Origin: an uncultured bacterium
GTDB taxonomy: Bacteria; Krumholzibacteriota; Krumholzibacteriia; LZORAL124-64-63
Assembly (NCBI GenBank): GCA_963727525.1
Contig: CAVSGO010000007.1
Span: 192,001 to 256,000 of the forward strand
Length of the DNA: 64,000 nt
Direction: 5' to 3'
The notes below the pieces were generated by a model. That model worked only from the letters and a program-made list of their open reading frames with translations, did no database searches and was not told where the DNA came from. The translations under genes were made by a program, and so were the position numbers. Shown here one piece after another: positions 40,060 to 48,750 of the stretch (position 1 is its first letter; every line of letters begins with the position of its first letter).

Positions 40060-42978
40060 ATGCCGACCTGTGAACAGCTGCTATTCGGCAACCGACCCGA
40101 CGCCGAGCCAGGCCGCGATGTCCTGGGATGTTCACCGGGCATGGAGACCGAGTGTGCCCGCGAGGTCGTGCATCTGTGCGAGGGCTGGGGCGCAGGGCCT
40201 CCCGAGGGTTTGCGGCGCGCCGTGCTGATGTCGGCGCCGTTGAAAGCGCACCTGTCGGGTCTGCCGGGCCGACTCTTCGCCGTCGTCCGCATCGCGTGCG
40301 GTTTGCGGCCGCTCTACCACGCGTTCGTGATGACGGAGGGGGCGTTCGCGGAATTTGCACGCAATCCGTACGCCGTCGCAAGCACGGGCGTGTTCATGGA
40401 TTCCTTCAAGCCGGGGCCCCTGCTCAGCCGCGTCGTCATCGAACCGCCGCAGCCCTGCAGTCTGCCGACACCTGTCCCTGGCGACGTCGGTTTCGTCGAC
40501 GAGGGGCTGCGCACGGCGATCGCCAACCAGCAGCTCCACCTGCCGCTGGAGTTTCCGACCGAGGAGAGCGATCGCTACCTGTCGCTCCTGATCGCCGCGC
40601 TGCCGAAGCTCATGCGCCGCGACCTGCGCTTCGTCTCCTGGGCGCCGGTGGGACGCAACACGTATACGCTGGCCGCCACCCAGCTCGAGGCCGCGCTCTT
40701 TCGTGGCTGGAAACCGTATCTGATGTCGAGCGCCGTGGGAACGCTGCACGAATCTGCGCAGCGCTATGTCGACAACGTGCGGCTTCGCCTCGGCGACGGC
40801 GATTTCGTGGCGCTGCTGGACGGAGCCGATCGCGCCGTCATCGAGCTCGGCGTGAAGCCGGAGAATCCGGCGCTCAAGGCCAAGAACACATTCGCGGCCA
40901 TGGCCATCGCCGACGCGCGCCCGAAGGACGGCCCGCGGCCGAGGCAGCGTGGACGCCTGCTGCCGCCGACCACGCGTCCGGTCTCGGAGGCCATGCCGTC
41001 GGCCCGCCGCCCGGGACCACGACCGGCCGCGCGTTACCGGCCGCCGCGGCGGGCCTCGCTCTCCTGGACGCGTCGAGCCCTCGCGGGTCTACTCGTTCTC
41101 GGCATCGTCGGCACCGGCGGCTACCAGCTCTGGTGCTACGGCCTGTGGGGGCGCCTGCCCGGCGTCCGCATCAGCGCGAGCGTGAGTCTGCACACGAATC
41201 CCAGCAATGGCGTCCTCGACGTGGGGCGGATGCACGACGACGCGTTGCGCCAGTGGGGCGGGGCCGCGCTCGGTGACCATGACCCCGGCGATCACGTGCT
41301 CCGTTTCTCTCAGGAAGCCGTGCAGCAAGCCCAGCTACTCCTCGACGCGCAGGGCGAGGCCTATGTCGAGCAGGTCGGTGCCACGCTGGCCAGCGGCGGT
41401 CGCGGCGACATCCACGCCGCCGGCGAGGCGCTGCCCGCCGGCAAGCTCGTGACCAAGGGCACGGCGCTCACCCGCGAGCTGCGCCGGCTCGCTCTCGCAA
41501 GGGTGTCCCTGCTCGACGGTGCGCACTGGCGCGACCTGTCTCGCCTCGACGCGCGCGACCTGGCCGCGCGCTACGATTCGGTGGCCCACGCGCGGGCCGG
41601 CGGCCAGCCGGACGCCTTCTGGACCTCCGTGGACGACCGGCTCCACGGCGTCGACCGTGCGTGCCGGCACGTGGCGGCGCTGGATCGTGTCCAGACATTG
41701 CTCGCGGAATCCCACTGGCGTGACCGCTGGCCCGACGATGTGGAACAGGCCTCTCGCAACCTCGCGACCGCCCAGGGCGCCGGAGCGCGAGCCTGGCTGG
41801 AGGCTGCCCATGCGCTCGTGGGCACCAAGCGTGCCGAACGGAGCATCGGCGTCGCCGAGGCTGCCCTGTCCGTCGACGATCCCACGGTCGTCTGGCATGG
41901 CGGACCGATCGCCGTCCTCTTACCCGAACTGCGCCGTGCCCTGGGCGGATTCCCGGACGGCGGGCCGCCGCCCCTGTTGCGCGATACGACCCGCTTCTAC
42001 GACGATCTGGCCGCCGGATGGGATGCGCTCGACACGGCGGCTCCCGATCAACTGGCCGCGACGATCCGCACGCTTCGCCAGAATCCCGTGCTCGCATACG
42101 ATCCGCAGACCTATGACGATCACGTGGCGCGACTCGGTGTGGCGATGGTCGCCAGCTTGCGCACCCGCGGGATGCCGGTCGAATCCATGCCCGAGTCGCT
42201 GTTTCCTCAGGGTCAGCGGCAGGAAACCGTGTTTTTCCTCGCGGCGGTCGCTGAGGGACGGCGTAGCGACGGCTGGCGCGACCTGGCTCAGCAGTGTCAG
42301 GTCCCCTTCTTCGTCCGCTGGGCCGAGGGGCTTTCCCAGCGCGCGGCGGCCACGCGCCAGGCCCGCGACGACGCCTTCGATGCGGGCTACCAGCAGCTCC
42401 AGGATGCGTACGGAGCGCTGACGACCACGGTACTGAGCGGCAGCGATCCCTTGCCGGCCGCGCACGCTCTCGCGCAGCGAGCGGCCGACCTCCTGCGCGA
42501 CACGCCGGGCGGTTTCAGCGACGATCCGCTCCACCGCGAACGCTGGTTGCGCGTGCAGTTGCTCCACAGCACGTTGACGACGCCCCTGCCCCTGGATCTG
42601 GCGACCGTCACAGTACGCCGCGATCAGGCGGCATCGAGCGCGCCGGATTCGGTCGTCGTCGAGATCACGATGCCGGGCTGCGTGCCGCTCACCTCCGCGC
42701 CATGCGTGCTTGGGCCGTCGGCGCCGGCCGGAACCGGTTGGGTCGGAACCGCGCAAGCGCCCTGGCGTCTGCGGCCTGCACCCGGCGACCGGATCCAGCT
42801 CCGTGTGCTGAGCGCGGCCGACGGTGCCGAGGTCTGCCATGTCGCATACGCGCCCTGGCTCGACGAAGGCAGCGAGAAGGATCTGCAGCGCCCGCGTAGC
42901 GTCTCCGGAGGCAGCGTGGCCATACGACTCGAGACGGACTACTGGGCGTCGCTCCTGGACCTCGATCTCTCGAACTGA
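40060..42978 (+). CDS. Large hypothetical single-pass membrane protein with GAP1-N-like N-terminal domain
   Basis: 972 aa. N-terminus EQLLFG...VLGCSPG...YHAFVM...NPY, then a Pro/Arg linker, one TM and a large helical C-region. GAGG RBS. The domain call is by eye. Confidence 0.65.
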   Translation: MPTCEQLLFGNRPDAEPGRDVLGCSPGMETECAREVVHLCEGWGAGPPEGLRRAVLMSAPLKAHLSGLPGRLFAVVRIACGLRPLYHAFVMTEGAFAEFARNPYAVASTGVFMDSFKPGPLLSRVVIEPPQPCSLPTPVPGDVGFVDEGLRTAIANQQLHLPLEFPTEESDRYLSLLIAALPKLMRRDLRFVSWAPVGRNTYTLAATQLEAALFRGWKPYLMSSAVGTLHESAQRYVDNVRLRLGDGDFVALLDGADRAVIELGVKPENPALKAKNTFAAMAIADARPKDGPRPRQRGRLLPPTTRPVSEAMPSARRPGPRPAARYRPPRRASLSWTRRALAGLLVLGIVGTGGYQLWCYGLWGRLPGVRISASVSLHTNPSNGVLDVGRMHDDALRQWGGAALGDHDPGDHVLRFSQEAVQQAQLLLDAQGEAYVEQVGATLASGGRGDIHAAGEALPAGKLVTKGTALTRELRRLALARVSLLDGAHWRDLSRLDARDLAARYDSVAHARAGGQPDAFWTSVDDRLHGVDRACRHVAALDRVQTLLAESHWRDRWPDDVEQASRNLATAQGAGARAWLEAAHALVGTKRAERSIGVAEAALSVDDPTVVWHGGPIAVLLPELRRALGGFPDGGPPPLLRDTTRFYDDLAAGWDALDTAAPDQLAATIRTLRQNPVLAYDPQTYDDHVARLGVAMVASLRTRGMPVESMPESLFPQGQRQETVFFLAAVAEGRRSDGWRDLAQQCQVPFFVRWAEGLSQRAAATRQARDDAFDAGYQQLQDAYGALTTTVLSGSDPLPAAHALAQRAADLLRDTPGGFSDDPLHRERWLRVQLLHSTLTTPLPLDLATVTVRRDQAASSAPDSVVVEITMPGCVPLTSAPCVLGPSAPAGTGWVGTAQAPWRLRPAPGDRIQLRVLSAADGAEVCHVAYAPWLDEGSEKDLQRPRSVSGGSVAIRLETDYWASLLDLDLSN

Positions 42979-43057
42979 ACATCAGCGTTCACGCAACCTA
43001 TCCCGTGGTGCGGCGTACGATCCCGGATCGACGTCACTTGCACCAGGGAGGCCCAGC

Positions 43058-43642
43058 ATGTCCAGGACGCTGACAACCAGGACGCTCAAAACCAGCGCGC
43101 TCACTGCCGCCGTCCTCTTCGTCGTCATCGTTGGTCCAATGGGCCGACCCGCGTCCGCCGCCACCGACGACCAGCTCGTGGTCATCACCGACGACGGCCA
43201 GCCGACGACCGTCACCGTGCACGATGGCACGTTGACCGTCGTCACCGGCACGGGCGATGACGCCACCGTCCACGAGGTGGACCTGACGGGTCTCGGCGAG
43301 CTGGTGGGCGAGGCGGTGACGCAGGCGCTGGCCGGGCTCGACGGGGCGTTCGCCGGCCTCGCCGATATGGACGTCGACATCCACGTCCGGCCCGAACATC
43401 AGCTCGTGCTGGATATCGACGGCGGCACGACGGTGATCGATCTGGGCGAGGTCATGGCCCAGGTCGACGATGCCCTGGCCGCCGTGCGGTCCGAGGTCGC
43501 CTGCATCGGCGAGCAGCAGCGGGAACACGACGGCGCTGCATCGCTCCACCGCGAGTCGCGGCGGCTGCGGCGCCAGATCGCCGAGCTCGAGGAGCAGATC
43601 CAGGAGACGAAGGAAGAACTGGCGGCCCAGGATCGCCGCTAG
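43058..43642 (+). CDS. Hypothetical secreted protein with C-terminal coiled coil
   Basis: GGAGG RBS, signal peptide ending ASA-A, acidic beta-rich segments and heptad repeats. Confidence 0.65.
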   Translation: MSRTLTTRTLKTSALTAAVLFVVIVGPMGRPASAATDDQLVVITDDGQPTTVTVHDGTLTVVTGTGDDATVHEVDLTGLGELVGEAVTQALAGLDGAFAGLADMDVDIHVRPEHQLVLDIDGGTTVIDLGEVMAQVDDALAAVRSEVACIGEQQREHDGAASLHRESRRLRRQIAELEEQIQETKEELAAQDRR

Positions 43643-43689: not shown

Positions 43690-44448
43690 CTAGCGGTCGC
43701 CGGAAACGAGCTTCCCCTGTGCGGTGTCCGGGTGCCCGGCTTCCCCCTTGGCCGGCGGCACCGCCAGGGGGAGTTCGAGCAGTTGCAGTGGGTGCGTGAT
43801 GTGCCAGTCGGCCTCCGCCAGTTCGTCGGCTCCACCGAATCCGTAGAGGCAACCCACCGTCCGAGCCCCCATGGCCTGCCCGGCCTCGATGTCGTGGATC
43901 CGGTCGCCCACCACCACGGCTCGTTCGAAACCGCGCGCCAGGTGCTTCACCATGCCCCGCTTGTGCCGCGCCACGCGGGACCGCACCGCGTGCTCCAGAG
44001 ACAGCGCCCGGTCGAAGTAGCGGCCGAGGCGATGCACGTCGACGACCGCGCGGAAGTAAGGCTCGCATGCGTTGCTGAACAGAGCCATCCGGTGCCCGCG
44101 CTCGTGCAGGGTCGCGAGCATCTCCTCGGCACCCTCGTACAGGACGGTCTCGCCGTGCTGCAGAGCCGCGACCTCGGCGCGGGTGGATCGCACCTCGAAC
44201 TCTCCCGCGAAGACGTCGTGCAGGTCGGACGGCACGGTCTCGGGGTCGAAAGCCATGCGGAAGAACGTGGAAGAGGGAAGACCCATGGACAGGCTGATGC
44301 GGTCGCGATCGGGTTCGCACGCAGGCAGCAGGAAATGCCGGTAGGCTTCCTGCAAGCCCGTGATCACGGCGTCGATGACCGCCTGGCGACCATCCATCAG
44401 GGTTCCGTCGGTGTCGAAGACGAGGGTGAGGTCGGCGGCTGCGGTCAT
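43690..44448 (-). CDS. HAD-family hydrolase (phosphoglycolate phosphatase-like)
   Basis: Motif I FDTDGTL, FSN, GDRIHDIEAG and YGFG. Confidence 0.88.
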   Translation of the reverse strand: MTAAADLTLVFDTDGTLMDGRQAVIDAVITGLQEAYRHFLLPACEPDRDRISLSMGLPSSTFFRMAFDPETVPSDLHDVFAGEFEVRSTRAEVAALQHGETVLYEGAEEMLATLHERGHRMALFSNACEPYFRAVVDVHRLGRYFDRALSLEHAVRSRVARHKRGMVKHLARGFERAVVVGDRIHDIEAGQAMGARTVGCLYGFGGADELAEADWHITHPLQLLELPLAVPPAKGEAGHPDTAQGKLVSGDR

Positions 44449-44451
44449 GCG

Positions 44452-44682
44452 TCAACTCCCGGCAATGAGATCGAGTCGATCGAAGATCTCCGCGTCCTCG
44501 GGGAACCGGCCACATTTCTTCTTCGAGAAGATCAGCGTGCCGTCCACCAGGACCTCGAAGACACCTCCACTGGATGGGATCATTTCGCTCTCGACGCCGT
44601 AGCGCTCCTTGAGGCGTGCTGCCAGACCGGCAGCGGTGGGTTCGTAATTTCAGACCTGACAGTATTCGATCGCGATGTGCAT
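44452..44682 (-). CDS. SelT/SelW/SelH (Rdx) family selenoprotein, Sec at the in-frame UGA 44650-44652
   Basis: MHIAIEYCQV-U-NYEPTAAGLAARLKERYGVESEMIPSSGGVFEVLVDGTLIFSKKKCGRFPEDAEIFDRLDLIAGS*. It has a CxxU motif, the Rdx signature GG.FEV.VDG.LIFSK...GRFP, a GGAGGTGA RBS and a SECIS hairpin. Confidence 0.92.
44618..44634 (-). other. Bacterial SECIS element
   Basis: On the mRNA strand GCUGCC-GGUCU-GGCAGC, starting 15 nt 3' of the UGA. The GGUCU loop resembles the E. coli fdhF SECIS apical loop. Confidence 0.8.
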
Positions 44683-44699
44683 GCCATCACCTCCCGATT

Positions 44700-45872
44700 T
44701 CAGAACTGCAGGAGCGGCTTTGGCCACGCCGCCAGCGTCTCCTCGAACCCGGCCGGCGTGAAGTCGTCGATATGCACCACGGGCGCCTCGCCACCGCCGA
44801 GGATGACGTCGAGGATGCGGTCGTGGATGCCGTTGCCGCGGTCCTCGAGCAGGTTGCGCGTGATGTACCAGTCGGCGAACAGACGCCGTCCGATGACGGA
44901 TCGCAACGTCAGACCGTTGACGATGACGCGGTCGAAGGCCTGGATCCTGAAGCTGCCCTGCTTCAATCCGAACAGGATAACGTCGCCGCCACGGCGCGTC
45001 GACTGGATGGCATTGTTCACGCTCGTATTGTATCCGGCCATCTCCAGGCTGATGTCGGCGCCGCCGCCGCCAAACGCGGCACGCACGTCGTTCACCAGTT
45101 CCCGATCGGCGGTCCAGCCGTTCTTCGCCACCCGCGTCGGATCCAGCGGAATGACATCGTCCGCGCCGAGGCGCCGTGCCATCTCGATGTTGTGCGGCGA
45201 CGGCTCGATACCGATCACGCGCGTGGCGCCGAGTGCGCGCGCGACCATGATCGCGAACAGGCCGATCGTGCCGCAGCCGAATATGGCCACTGATTGACCG
45301 CGCATGTCGGCCACCTGACAGGCGTGCACTGCATTGCCGAAGGGCTCCTGGACGGCGGCCACCTCGAGCTTGATCTTGCGCGCATCGGTGGGCCACAGGG
45401 TCTGCGCCGGCAACTTGATGTACTCCGCGAAGCATCCGTCCTGACCGATGCCGATGATGATGTCATTGGCGCAGATGTGCGTCTGCCCGATGCGGCACTG
45501 GTAGCACACGTTGCAGATGATGTGCGATTCGGTCGTGACGATGTCCTTGGGTCGATATCCGTAACGGGCGGCGGCCCGTGGACCGACCTCGACGATCTCA
45601 CCCACCATCTCGTGCCCGATGGTCCGCACCGTGCGCTGCTCGCGCTTGAGGCTCTCGAAGATCATTCCCTTGAACGCGACACGGTTCCAGATGCCACGGT
45701 CGCTGCCGCAGAACCCGGAGTAGATGACCTTCACGATCACCTTGTCGGCGTCGCCGGGATCGGCGGAGTCGAGAACCGGGCGCGAAATTTCCCGACGCTC
45801 GAATCCGCGGGTGGTATCCCACGGCATGGAGGACTTGTCGTAGACCAGGGCCTTCATCGTTGCGGGCTGCAC
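44700..45872 (-). CDS. Zn-dependent dehydrogenase, L-threonine 3-dehydrogenase-like
   Basis: CGSD, GHE, structural Zn site CNVCYQCRIGQTHIC, EPFGNAVH and GCGTIG. GGAGG RBS. Confidence 0.8.
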   Translation of the reverse strand: MQPATMKALVYDKSSMPWDTTRGFERREISRPVLDSADPGDADKVIVKVIYSGFCGSDRGIWNRVAFKGMIFESLKREQRTVRTIGHEMVGEIVEVGPRAAARYGYRPKDIVTTESHIICNVCYQCRIGQTHICANDIIIGIGQDGCFAEYIKLPAQTLWPTDARKIKLEVAAVQEPFGNAVHACQVADMRGQSVAIFGCGTIGLFAIMVARALGATRVIGIEPSPHNIEMARRLGADDVIPLDPTRVAKNGWTADRELVNDVRAAFGGGGADISLEMAGYNTSVNNAIQSTRRGGDVILFGLKQGSFRIQAFDRVIVNGLTLRSVIGRRLFADWYITRNLLEDRGNGIHDRILDVILGGGEAPVVHIDDFTPAGFEETLAAWPKPLLQF

Positions 45873-45971: not shown

Positions 45972-46005
45972 CAATAACAACGGCGACCGGGGGGACCGGT
46001 CGCCG
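45972..46005 (-). terminator. Rho-independent terminator after parA
   Basis: 10-bp stem CGGCGACCGG/CCGGTCGCCG followed on the minus strand by TTGTTATTG. Confidence 0.65.
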
Positions 46006-46035: not shown

Positions 46036-47238
46036 CTAGTTGAAACGACTATTGGTCCAGCCCTCGTCCCAGTCGCCATCCTTTTCTCCCCGCTCCTCCT
46101 CCGCCAGCAGATCGTCGAGCGAGAGCATGTCCGGCCCGGAGAACTCGTCGGGCATGGGGACCACGGGCTGCCGGAGCGCGCCGCTGGCGCGGAGTTCGCC
46201 GAGCAGGCGGTCGAGGCCGCCGCCACCGAGCGCGCCGCCGGTCGGAGTCACGGCGCGGACGGTTCCGTCCAGTGAGGAGAGTGCCGTGGCGCGCGGGAGC
46301 GCGTCGCGTTCGTCGGGGAGTTCCGGGGTATCGGGCACGGTGTCCGGCGTCGGGACACATTCTTTCTCGCAGTAGCGCATGACGACCTCGTCGGCGAGGT
46401 CGAAGTAGGCACGGCTGCCGGCCGATCGACGGTCGTAGATCACCGCCGGCTTGCCACGCAGCGCCATCTCGCTGAGGCGGGTGGTGCGGGGCACGGCGGC
46501 GGCGAACATCACGGGTCCGAATTCCGACGCCACCCGGGCCGAAACGTGGCGACTCATCCGTGTGCGGTCATTGACCATCGTCAGGAAGATGCCCTCGATC
46601 TCCAGGGGGCGCTCGTCATTCTCGTCGAAGGTGGCGCTGGGACTGAAGACCCGGTCCCGGAACGCATCCACCGAGCCGATGAGGGGACCGACCGAATCGC
46701 GGCAGAGTTCCTCCGCCTGCACCGGCACGAGGTAGCTGTCCGACGCGAGCAGAGCGGCGCGTGTCGGCTGGGATAGCCCCGGCGGACAGTCGATGAGGAT
46801 CGTGTCGTAAAGATTACGCGCACGATCGATCTGGGCGACGAAGTGGTCGGCCTTCTCGTGCATCGCGGCGATGAAACGCTCCTCCTCCTCGAGGCAGGAG
46901 ATGCGCGGCGACACGAAAAACAGATTCTTGAGCGTCGATGTGTGGGCGAGGTGTGTCAACGGCACGTTCCGGTCGAACATGCTGAGGAGACCGTCGTCGA
47001 GATCGCTGACAGCGTAGCCGAGCGAGCGGCTGACGCCGCACTGCGGATCCACGCCGACGATCAGGACGGTGTGGCCCGAGAGCGCGAGGGCGGCACCGAG
47101 GTTCACCGTCGACGTCGTCTTGCCGACGCCACCCTTGCGGCTGACGAGACTGATCACGCGGGCAGAGACGGTGTTCCAAGGTGTGCGGCGCTTCGGGGCG
47201 CCGGTAGATGTCGGTGTGGCGTGGCTGTCGTGCTCCAT
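46036..47238 (-). CDS. ParA/Soj family ATPase with acidic C-terminal extension
   Basis: Deviant Walker A KGGVGKTT, DPQ, IDCPPGL and PVQAE. No parB is adjacent. Confidence 0.88.
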   Translation of the reverse strand: MEHDSHATPTSTGAPKRRTPWNTVSARVISLVSRKGGVGKTTSTVNLGAALALSGHTVLIVGVDPQCGVSRSLGYAVSDLDDGLLSMFDRNVPLTHLAHTSTLKNLFFVSPRISCLEEEERFIAAMHEKADHFVAQIDRARNLYDTILIDCPPGLSQPTRAALLASDSYLVPVQAEELCRDSVGPLIGSVDAFRDRVFSPSATFDENDERPLEIEGIFLTMVNDRTRMSRHVSARVASEFGPVMFAAAVPRTTRLSEMALRGKPAVIYDRRSAGSRAYFDLADEVVMRYCEKECVPTPDTVPDTPELPDERDALPRATALSSLDGTVRAVTPTGGALGGGGLDRLLGELRASGALRQPVVPMPDEFSGPDMLSLDDLLAEEERGEKDGDWDEGWTNSRFN

Positions 47239-47354: not shown

Positions 47355-48017
47355 TCAGGCGAGGAGTTCCTGGAGGTCGGCAACGAGCCTCGCGGCGCCG
47401 TCGAAAACCTCGGTGATCGTGCTTGCGACCATGTAGGCTGGCGTGGTGACCATGAGGTTCGGGCGGTCGATCACCGTGTCGGTGACGGCGCAGTCCTGGT
47501 GTCGGGCGCCCATGGCGACGATGGCGGCTGCCGTGTCCCGATCGTTGCCGATGGTGACCGTCGGGTGGGCGGTGGCGCCGAAGACGCGTGCCAGGATCAC
47601 GGGAGCGATGCACATCGCCGCGATGGGCTTGCGCGTATCGTACGTGGATCGCAGGAGCGCGGCCACCGGCGGGTGCACGGCACACGCGGCGCCGCGGACG
47701 GCGAAATCGCAGAGGTTCTTGGCTGCGCCGTAACCGCCTGGAAGCAGGACGGCATCGATGGCATCGACCCGGACCTCGGCGAGGTCGCGGATCTTGCCGC
47801 GCGCGATGCGGGCCGATTCCGCGAGCACGTCGCGGCTCTGGTTGCCGATCGGCTGGCCGGTGGCATGATCGATCACGTGCCGCTGGGGCATACGCGGCGC
47901 GCAGATTACCGGATCGAGACCTGCACGGGTGAGGGCCAGCAGAGCTGCGCAGGCTTCTTGAATCTCCGTGCCGTCCATGACGCCGCAGCCGCTGAGGATC
48001 ACCGCGACCTTCTTCAT
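47355..48017 (-). CDS. elbB: ElbB glyoxalase (DJ-1/PfpI, ES1 family)
   Basis: MKKVAVILSGCGVMDGTEIQE, ESARIARG, PGGYGAAKNL, CIAP and TTPAYM. Confidence 0.93.
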   Translation of the reverse strand: MKKVAVILSGCGVMDGTEIQEACAALLALTRAGLDPVICAPRMPQRHVIDHATGQPIGNQSRDVLAESARIARGKIRDLAEVRVDAIDAVLLPGGYGAAKNLCDFAVRGAACAVHPPVAALLRSTYDTRKPIAAMCIAPVILARVFGATAHPTVTIGNDRDTAAAIVAMGARHQDCAVTDTVIDRPNLMVTTPAYMVASTITEVFDGAARLVADLQELLA

Positions 48018-48142
48018 AGTGTATCCTTTCTGCCAGCGTGGGCCGACCGCGAGGTCGAGCTCGATGTCCCCCTCGGCCATGAAGCGCCACCGGACGGGTG
48101 CTGTCAACCCCGTGGCGCCGCGTAGCCCGGACAGAGCCGGCG

Positions 48143-48193
48143 GCCGACCTGGGATGGGTGCCGACCTGGGGTGGGTGACGACTTGGAGTTTGT
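48143..48193 (+). repeat. Three tandem 17-bp degenerate repeats
   Basis: GCCGACCTGGGATGGGT / GCCGACCTGGGGTGGGT / GACGACTTGGAGTTTGT, plus an inverted core CCAGGTCGG at 48228-48236. Confidence 0.7.
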
Positions 48194-48273
48194 GCGGGAG
48201 GGATCGGCGCATAACTTTGACCGCATGCCAGGTCGGACCCCGGCCGTAGCCCCTCAACCAGGAGACGCGCAGC

Positions 48274-48750
48274 ATGACCGGCAAGATCGCCATCGGCGGG
48301 ATCACGAGAACAGACAATCTCGTACTCGTTCGCGTGCTCGGGGCCCCACTGGGCCGCCCATTCGTGGGGCGGGTCCTCACGGCGCTCGGCCATGCCGGTA
48401 TCAACGTGCTATGCGTGGCCTCGTTCGTCGACACCGGGAAGCGCGCCAACCTGTGCCTGGCCATCACCCACGGTGACCTCGATCAGGCGTTGGGACTGTT
48501 GCAGGATATCCGCGACGAAGTGGGGGCCGAACGCGTCGAGACGCAGCGCGGCTGCAGCGCGATCTCGGTGTATGGGCCGCAGTTCAGCAGCAGTCCGGCC
48601 ATCGGCGGTCGCATCTTCGATGCCACCGCGGGCGCCGGCGTGAGCGTGCACATGATCAGCTCGTCGTTCACGACGATCGCGTTTCTGGTGGATATGGAGT
48701 GTGCCGACGCGGCCGTCGCCCAACTACGGGAGACATTCCTCGTTCCCTGA
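48274..48750 (+). CDS. Stand-alone tandem ACT-domain protein (aspartokinase beta-subunit-like)
   Basis: Two ACT repeats (...ALGHAGINV...; ISVYGP...P.I..RIF.A..AGVSVHMISSS...AVAQLRETF). CAGGAG RBS. Confidence 0.8.
   Translation: MTGKIAIGGITRTDNLVLVRVLGAPLGRPFVGRVLTALGHAGINVLCVASFVDTGKRANLCLAITHGDLDQALGLLQDIRDEVGAERVETQRGCSAISVYGPQFSSSPAIGGRIFDATAGAGVSVHMISSSFTTIAFLVDMECADAAVAQLRETFLVP

Follow-up and report, generated by a model that had tools for sequence, protein, structure and literature searches.

SelW-like proteins with a CxxU motif are a high-confidence predicted selenoprotein family of prokaryotes (PMC13188914, PMC9312934). Known since about 2005, they are among the commonest bacterial selenoprotein families: 48 SelW-like genes were described in the Sargasso Sea set (PMC1088965), 427 in the GOS set (PMC2398784), and 10 in the genomes sequenced by 2006 (PMC1794560), and the family is the most abundant one in both the Sargasso Sea and the GOS selenoproteomes (PMC1088965, PMC2398784). 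BSepDB, which is reported to hold 57,630 bacterial selenoproteins (PMC13326102), may include the lineage described here.

The window, by which we mean the whole 64,000-nucleotide stretch of DNA that was analysed, contains an ordinary, real member of this long-known family. It has in common with bacterial SelW (SELENOW)-like genes the CxxU motif, the GxFEV signature, and an in-frame UGA followed by a bacterial SECIS. That it is a true SelW-like (Rdx) gene encoding a bacterial selenoprotein, with selenocysteine (Sec) predicted at codon 11, we hold at a probability of roughly 0.9. The gene comes from an uncultured lineage that goes unmentioned in the available text of the SelW-like papers cited above. 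Prx is the one operon partner of SelW-like genes named in the accessible part of PMC13188914 (section 9), but the gene next to this one encodes a threonine dehydrogenase.

The closest solved structures are bacterial SelW-related proteins of the same fold: 2fa8 (Agrobacterium Atu0228), 2obk and 2oka (Pseudomonas), 2ojl (Bordetella), 2p0g (Vibrio), and 3dex (Streptomyces). They match our structural model at TM 0.80–0.90 with 29–38% identity and are ~103–108 aa long, versus 76 aa here; we take them to have Cys in place of Sec. Mammalian SELENOW (2npb) and MIEN1 (Rdx12; 2ljk) share the Rdx fold and the CxxU/CxxC motif, and the model matches mouse SelW at TM 0.65 and MIEN1 at TM 0.80, with about 24–33% identity. 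Unlike the hairpin that lies just past the UGA here, the SECIS of mammalian SELENOW is of the eukaryotic kind and is located in the 3' UTR, and the partners of animal SELENOW/MIEN1 are not transferable to the bacterial protein.

An in-frame UGA within a SelW-like gene

The gene and its immediate surroundings comprise the following features:

44452..44682, minus strand: selW-like gene of the Rdx family, encoding 76 aa, Sec11 predicted (profiles, translation, model)
44650..44661, minus strand: putative redox motif C8-Q-V-U11 (sequence and conserved TGA)
44690..44694, minus strand: ribosome-binding site GGAGG, 7 nt 5' of the ATG (sequence)
44551..44568, minus strand: Rdx tGxFEI(V) signature, present as G39-G-V-F-E-V44 (22-protein alignment; PMC10650576)
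44452..44583, minus strand: shortened 43-aa product from Met34 in the public protein collection (protein-collection search)
44700..45872, minus strand: upstream Zn-dependent (MDR) L-threonine 3-dehydrogenase-like gene, tdh-like (NCBIfam, PDB, distribution)
43690..44448, minus strand: HAD-family hydrolase, starting 3 nt past the selW stop (Pfam, NCBIfam)

An earlier note on this DNA had read a hidden minus-strand gene in the gap that separates the tdh-like gene from the HAD gene, and its ATG, TGT, in-frame TGA, ribosome-binding site, and hairpin were all recovered where it had placed them. The start codon ATG is at 44682, the TGT of Cys8 at 44661–44659, and the in-frame TGA at 44652–44650, past which the reading frame stays open to a terminal TGA at 44454–44452. 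The frame does end 3 nt ahead of the HAD start, as had been described, the HAD ATG being at 44448. Translation from 44682 to 44452 gives 76 residues when the in-frame TGA is read as Sec. A motif scan found no sigma-70 promoter match, and an Rfam search returned two chance hits only, both with E above 1.

With Sec read as Cys, the product exceeds three curated profile cut-offs: PF10262 Rdx (74 bits versus a cut-off of 22.6, E 1e-20), TIGR02174 CXXU_selWTH (65.4 versus 34.2 bits), and NF041051 SelTWH_Campy (98.6 versus 88 bits). The profile search proposed in the earlier note thus bears out its description of a clean Rdx-family body. C8, the Sec position, G39, G40, V41, F42, and E43 do not vary among the 22 proteins aligned, and tGxFEI(V) is described as the Rdx signature (PMC10650576). 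An AlphaFold model built on the 22-sequence alignment (pLDDT 94.8) predicts a minimal thioredoxin-like fold for the product, in which helix 1 begins at C8xxU11. Its best Foldseek matches are 2fa8, 2obk, 2ojl, 2oka, and 2p0g (TM 0.85–0.90), with TM 0.87–0.90 for 2fa8 and 2p0g. A single-sequence fold (pLDDT 57.8) was set aside, and designed PPR proteins that appeared as PDB sequence matches were rejected as summed weak repeat matches.

The full-length sequence, with Cys for Sec, was not found in the public protein collection; for this contig only the 43-aa form was, and this fragment is without the active site. The gene has been cut short by the gene caller, just as the earlier note expected when it warned that standard callers would truncate or miss it. 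A word-based protein search for relatives returned only four proteins, because the relatives are truncated or uncalled. The gene matters mainly as an annotation fix, in that gene callers reduce a gene widespread in an uncultured phylum (131 of 201 sampled genomes) to a fragment that looks inactive; knowledge of selenocysteine decoding is unchanged by it. The conserved link to threonine dehydrogenase adds a modest extra value as a testable lead on the function of bacterial SelW-like proteins.

Homologues were compared for Cys or Sec at the aligned position, a check that the earlier note had called for. An Rdx match occurs in 47 of 60 relatives, and a TGA lies inside all 49 matches listed, the gene itself included. 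In the phylum sample of 201 genomes, one TGA is found in 132 of the 133 matches, and the one exception starts at profile position 18, behind the CxxU motif. We then considered 60 distinct loci, namely the best 30 of the relatives' matches, the best 30 of the phylum sample, and six others, with duplicates removed: the TGA is at the CxxU codon in all 60, none has the Cys form, and conserved residues flank the TGA on both sides. Second, divergent Rdx-like genes with a TGA were also seen at G047:C115:12943-13173 and G051:C46:7677-7910.

These comparisons bear on the reading that the TGA is a nonsense mutation in a pseudogene or a sequencing error, or that the real product is the fragment from Met34, which can point to the fact that the public collection has the 43-aa form only. 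The position of the TGA is the same in all 60 loci, between conserved residues, the ribosome-binding site precedes Met1, and the fragment would have no active site; we give this reading next to no chance, and the comparison, albeit among kin that are not independent, excludes a nonsense mutation or an error at the TGA. A changed genetic code, with UGA standing for another residue (Trp, Gly, or Cys), had no observation in its favour and is very improbable as well. In the genome, 1116 long protein-like ORFs end at TGA as their ordinary stop, and therefore the code is not generally changed; the selW-like gene itself also ends in TGA. The only tRNA with a UCA anticodon is tRNA-Sec, and tRNA-Trp has CCA (ARAGORN, RF01852).

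The hairpin downstream of the UGA

One further feature lies within the coding region:

44618..44634, minus strand: putative bacterial SECIS hairpin GCUGCC-GGUCU-GGCAGC (folding, covariation, synonymous constraint)

The hairpin that had been reported 15 nt past the UGA is present at 44634–44618. It has a 6-bp stem and a 5-nt GGUCU loop, with 21 nt from the UGA to the loop, and an energy of −11.6 kcal/mol in context or −10.1 kcal/mol by our consensus script. This script, which we wrote after the figure legend of PMC13188914, implements the bSECIS consensus (loop 3–9 nt, stem 4–16 bp, G in the first two loop positions, 16–37 nt from the UGA, energy at most −7.5), and the selW hairpin agrees with it. 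The same rule is satisfied by 153 of the 1116 ordinary TGA stops of the genome (14%), and folding z-scores are low (−0.6 to −1.6 for fragments of 40–73 nt, −2.8 for the bare 20-nt hairpin), so that the hairpin on its own is weak evidence, no more than chance. A looser hairpin rule is satisfied by 503 of 1160 TGAs. Not one of the 1116 ordinary stops carries a GGUCU loop at the same distance.

Conservation and covariation lend the element stronger support than the hairpin itself does. Across 30 sequences, 92.2% of the stem cells are paired and 8 cells are changed on both sides; none of 500 shuffles reached as high a pairing, and all six slid controls were lower. Only one pair shows a change on both its sides, a number that the shuffles reach as well. 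The base pair that joins two Ala wobble positions is kept in all 60 loci (CG in 44, GC in 10, TA in 3, and TG in 3), although this is a single pair in related sequences and thus represents few independent events. Codon choice is similarly constrained: all 25 loci with Gly in the loop use GGT for it, versus 12% in the relatives' ORFs, and the codon that follows is Leu CTG in 29 of 29, versus a background of 60%. Gly codons further along the gene vary freely. RNAalifold recovers the same stem.

Selenocysteine machinery and a frame-broken selB

Insertion of Sec at UGA by way of SelB and a SECIS is an established mechanism. At this locus, ribosomes would begin at ATG 44682, and SelB-GTP-Sec-tRNA(Sec) would bind the GGUCU hairpin just past the UGA and insert Sec at codon 11, in line with the SelB-SECIS decoding described in PMC1794560 and PMC9312934. 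We infer decoding at codon 11 from the hairpin and from the machinery genes found in the genome. Judging from motif and fold, the product would most likely be a small cytoplasmic thiol/selenol oxidoreductase, in which the Sec11 selenolate may attack a disulfide or an oxidised cysteine of a partner, and Cys8 would then resolve the mixed bond. Rdx proteins are described as thiol oxidoreductases of which the exact function is unknown (PMC10650576), and the same is said of bacterial SelW-like proteins (PMC1088965).

Of selA, selB, selC, and selD, for which the earlier note had suggested looking, three are accounted for without complication: profile searches of the genome identified selA (462 bits versus a cut-off of 268, no stops), tRNA-Sec(UCA) (70.4 versus 47), and selD, the catalytic position of which is itself an in-frame TGA with a similar hairpin behind it. 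The fourth, selB, is present but frame-broken in the assembly. The genome has one SelB GTPase region over the cut-off and one C-terminal SelB wing domain, and selB is over the cut-off in 59 of 61 genomes. The gene (G000 C5:675706-677602, minus strand, L002) has at least four frame breaks and no in-frame stop. The breaks lie near C5:676580, 676526, 676213, and 675970-676005 and are seen versus five of five relatives; a further compensating pair is probably located near C5:675905. All breaks are within the 3' 700 bp, one of them at a run of eight G. With X placed at the breaks, SelB is a full-length protein of 631 aa without a stop. It differs at 6.6% of otherwise invariant columns, compared with 0.5–9.4% for nine relatives, and the same measure gives 6.8% and 7.4% for the genome's own murA and prfA.

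The damage raises the question of whether the Sec gene is true of the lineage while the host's selB has been inactivated, by recent decay or switching at a homopolymer, in which case UGA would be a stop and no full-length protein would be made. In favour of such a loss are the four breaks versus all five relatives, with probably one more compensating pair, the single SelB GTPase region over the cut-off and single wing domain in the genome, and the divergence of 6.6%, which is toward the high end. Against it, there is no in-frame stop and no clear substitution excess despite 4–6 indels, selA, selD, and tRNA-Sec are intact, and other candidate Sec genes retain their UGA. Breaks are also absent from the majority of the genes nearby: none was seen in murA, rho, or (net) ispG, and of the nine genes of the region that could be compared with at least four relatives, selB and one TPR gene alone are broken versus all of them. 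The damage to selB thus exceeds what a uniform error rate would produce. The indels are, however, clustered, with similar damage close by. In the adjacent ispG (C5:~675560), a +1/−1 pair splits a conserved motif between frames, and a TPR-like gene 8 kb from selB (C5:684739-685987) is broken versus four of four relatives, which together suggest a low-quality stretch of the assembly. The assembly, of eight contigs, also looks like a long-read product. We regard inactivation of selB as a minor, improbable explanation and the selB breaks as most likely consensus errors. With selB frame-broken, automated annotation may wrongly class the organism as Sec-negative.

Breaks were taken as real only if seen versus all of four or more relatives. 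A filtered frameshift control, in which 201 of 238 relative ORFs in 79 gene groups were kept, flagged 7 of 28 near selB, compared with 2 of 15 inside the window and 2 of 36 in other places, artefacts still included in these counts. The first frameshift controls (raw, e.g., 5/29 versus 1/60) were discarded, being inflated by shadow ORFs and N-terminal overhangs. One public read run (share 0.05) covered 151 bp between two selB breaks and no break itself.

On the reading of UGA as Sec, the earlier note is supported by the conserved TGA, the covarying hairpin, and the machinery, and neither outcome that it named as refuting, a genome devoid of selABCD or tRNA-Sec or homologues devoid of C/U at this position, was obtained; with selB frame-broken, working decoding in this host is a prediction. 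A crude genome scan for in-frame TGA codons also returned, among many false ones, UxxC candidates at C7:310558, 312762, and 314977 (minus strand), C6:186092 (plus strand), and C5:627511 (plus strand), which are three tandem paralogues of ~700 codons, a thioredoxin-like gene, and a Prx-like gene.

Gene neighbourhood and threonine dehydrogenase

The tdh-like gene ends 17 nt ahead of the selW start, and this spacing, with that of 3 nt to the HAD gene, suggests a tdh-selW-HAD operon; the three genes are probably co-transcribed, with tdh as the probable first gene. Upstream of tdh there is one candidate signal:

45981..46005, minus strand: weak terminator-like hairpin, located between tdh and the parA-like gene (matches the consensus only)

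Three sites with terminator-like hairpins were found, versus 1.7 expected in shuffles. The HAD gene adjoins selW in 19 of the 60 loci.

The best NCBIfam match of the tdh-like gene is tdh, below its cut-off (235 versus 380), and all five of five PDB matches at E<=1e-35 are threonine dehydrogenases. Across 61 genomes, MDR and SDR threonine dehydrogenases (TDH) are nearly mutually exclusive (both in G022 and G059, neither in eight), which supports the tdh label despite the sub-cut-off score. The closest named relatives of this neighbour carry the labels Ca. Krumholzibacteriota or uncultured Fibrobacteraceae; the lineage is probably Krumholzibacteriota.

Comparison of coordinates within the family placed selW in 32 of 36 relatives, in all 32 directly downstream of a threonine dehydrogenase. 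The dehydrogenase is of the MDR type in 29 and of the unrelated SDR type, in the same slot, in 3; the best PDB matches of the SDR enzyme are L-threonine 3-dehydrogenases, and the exchange of SDR for MDR is an in-place non-orthologous displacement. In the SDR-type loci (L021, L023, and L048, of G004, G020, and G023), kbl is divergent beside the dehydrogenase. The three cases are 85–87% alike and, by this similarity, probably represent one event. With the queries used, the other 4 of the 36 family genomes have no selW and no MDR or SDR dehydrogenase; for two of them, genome completeness is just 59% and 82%. Gene order is in any case shared over much of the wider region within the family.

Outside the family, tdh and selW are adjacent in none of the 11 genomes that have both genes, and the neighbours of selW vary (heavy-metal ATPase, TrkA, antiporter, and others). 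For example, in family f5 (L030, L033, L034, and L044), the genes on either side of selW are a heavy-metal P-type ATPase and a 400-aa gene, followed by an Rrf2 regulator. By its C-terminal motif, the 400-aa gene is presumably a PP2C phosphatase.

A tie of the SelW-like protein to threonine breakdown, in which it would be co-expressed with TDH to repair thiol oxidation by aminoacetone, is a speculative idea that we think unlikely to be right. It draws on the chemistry of TDH, the product of which, 2-amino-3-ketobutyrate, breaks down to aminoacetone, a pro-oxidant (PMC3364214), and an ElbB glyoxalase gene is located two genes upstream of tdh. In its favour are the adjacency in all 32 relatives with selW, in two dehydrogenase types, and the joint absence of selW and both dehydrogenases in the other four; against it are the probable single origin of the SDR cases, the lack of adjacency in the 11 genomes of other families, the synteny of the wider region, and the incompleteness of two of the four genomes. 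If true, it would offer a first way into the physiology of a bacterial SelW-like protein. No paper linking threonine dehydrogenase, selenoprotein W, and an operon was found in a literature search that left subscription journals mostly outside its reach. A search for glycine reductase B gave no match, and its control was likewise without a match anywhere.

Several other genes share this part of the window. A ParA-like ATPase (46036-47238, minus strand), which also occurs upstream of tdh in several relatives, has an unusual acidic C-terminal tail of ~110 aa with a D/W-rich end. Two genes upstream of tdh is a gene for the glyoxalase ElbB (47355-48467, minus strand; NF008747, 282 bits versus 180), the real start of which is near residue 151 of the ORF. 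On the plus strand, 40060-42978 and 42824-43642 encode secreted-looking coiled-coil proteins of 972 aa and ~220 aa without a Pfam match, and a small gene similar to the coiled-coil one faces selW/HAD in many relatives.
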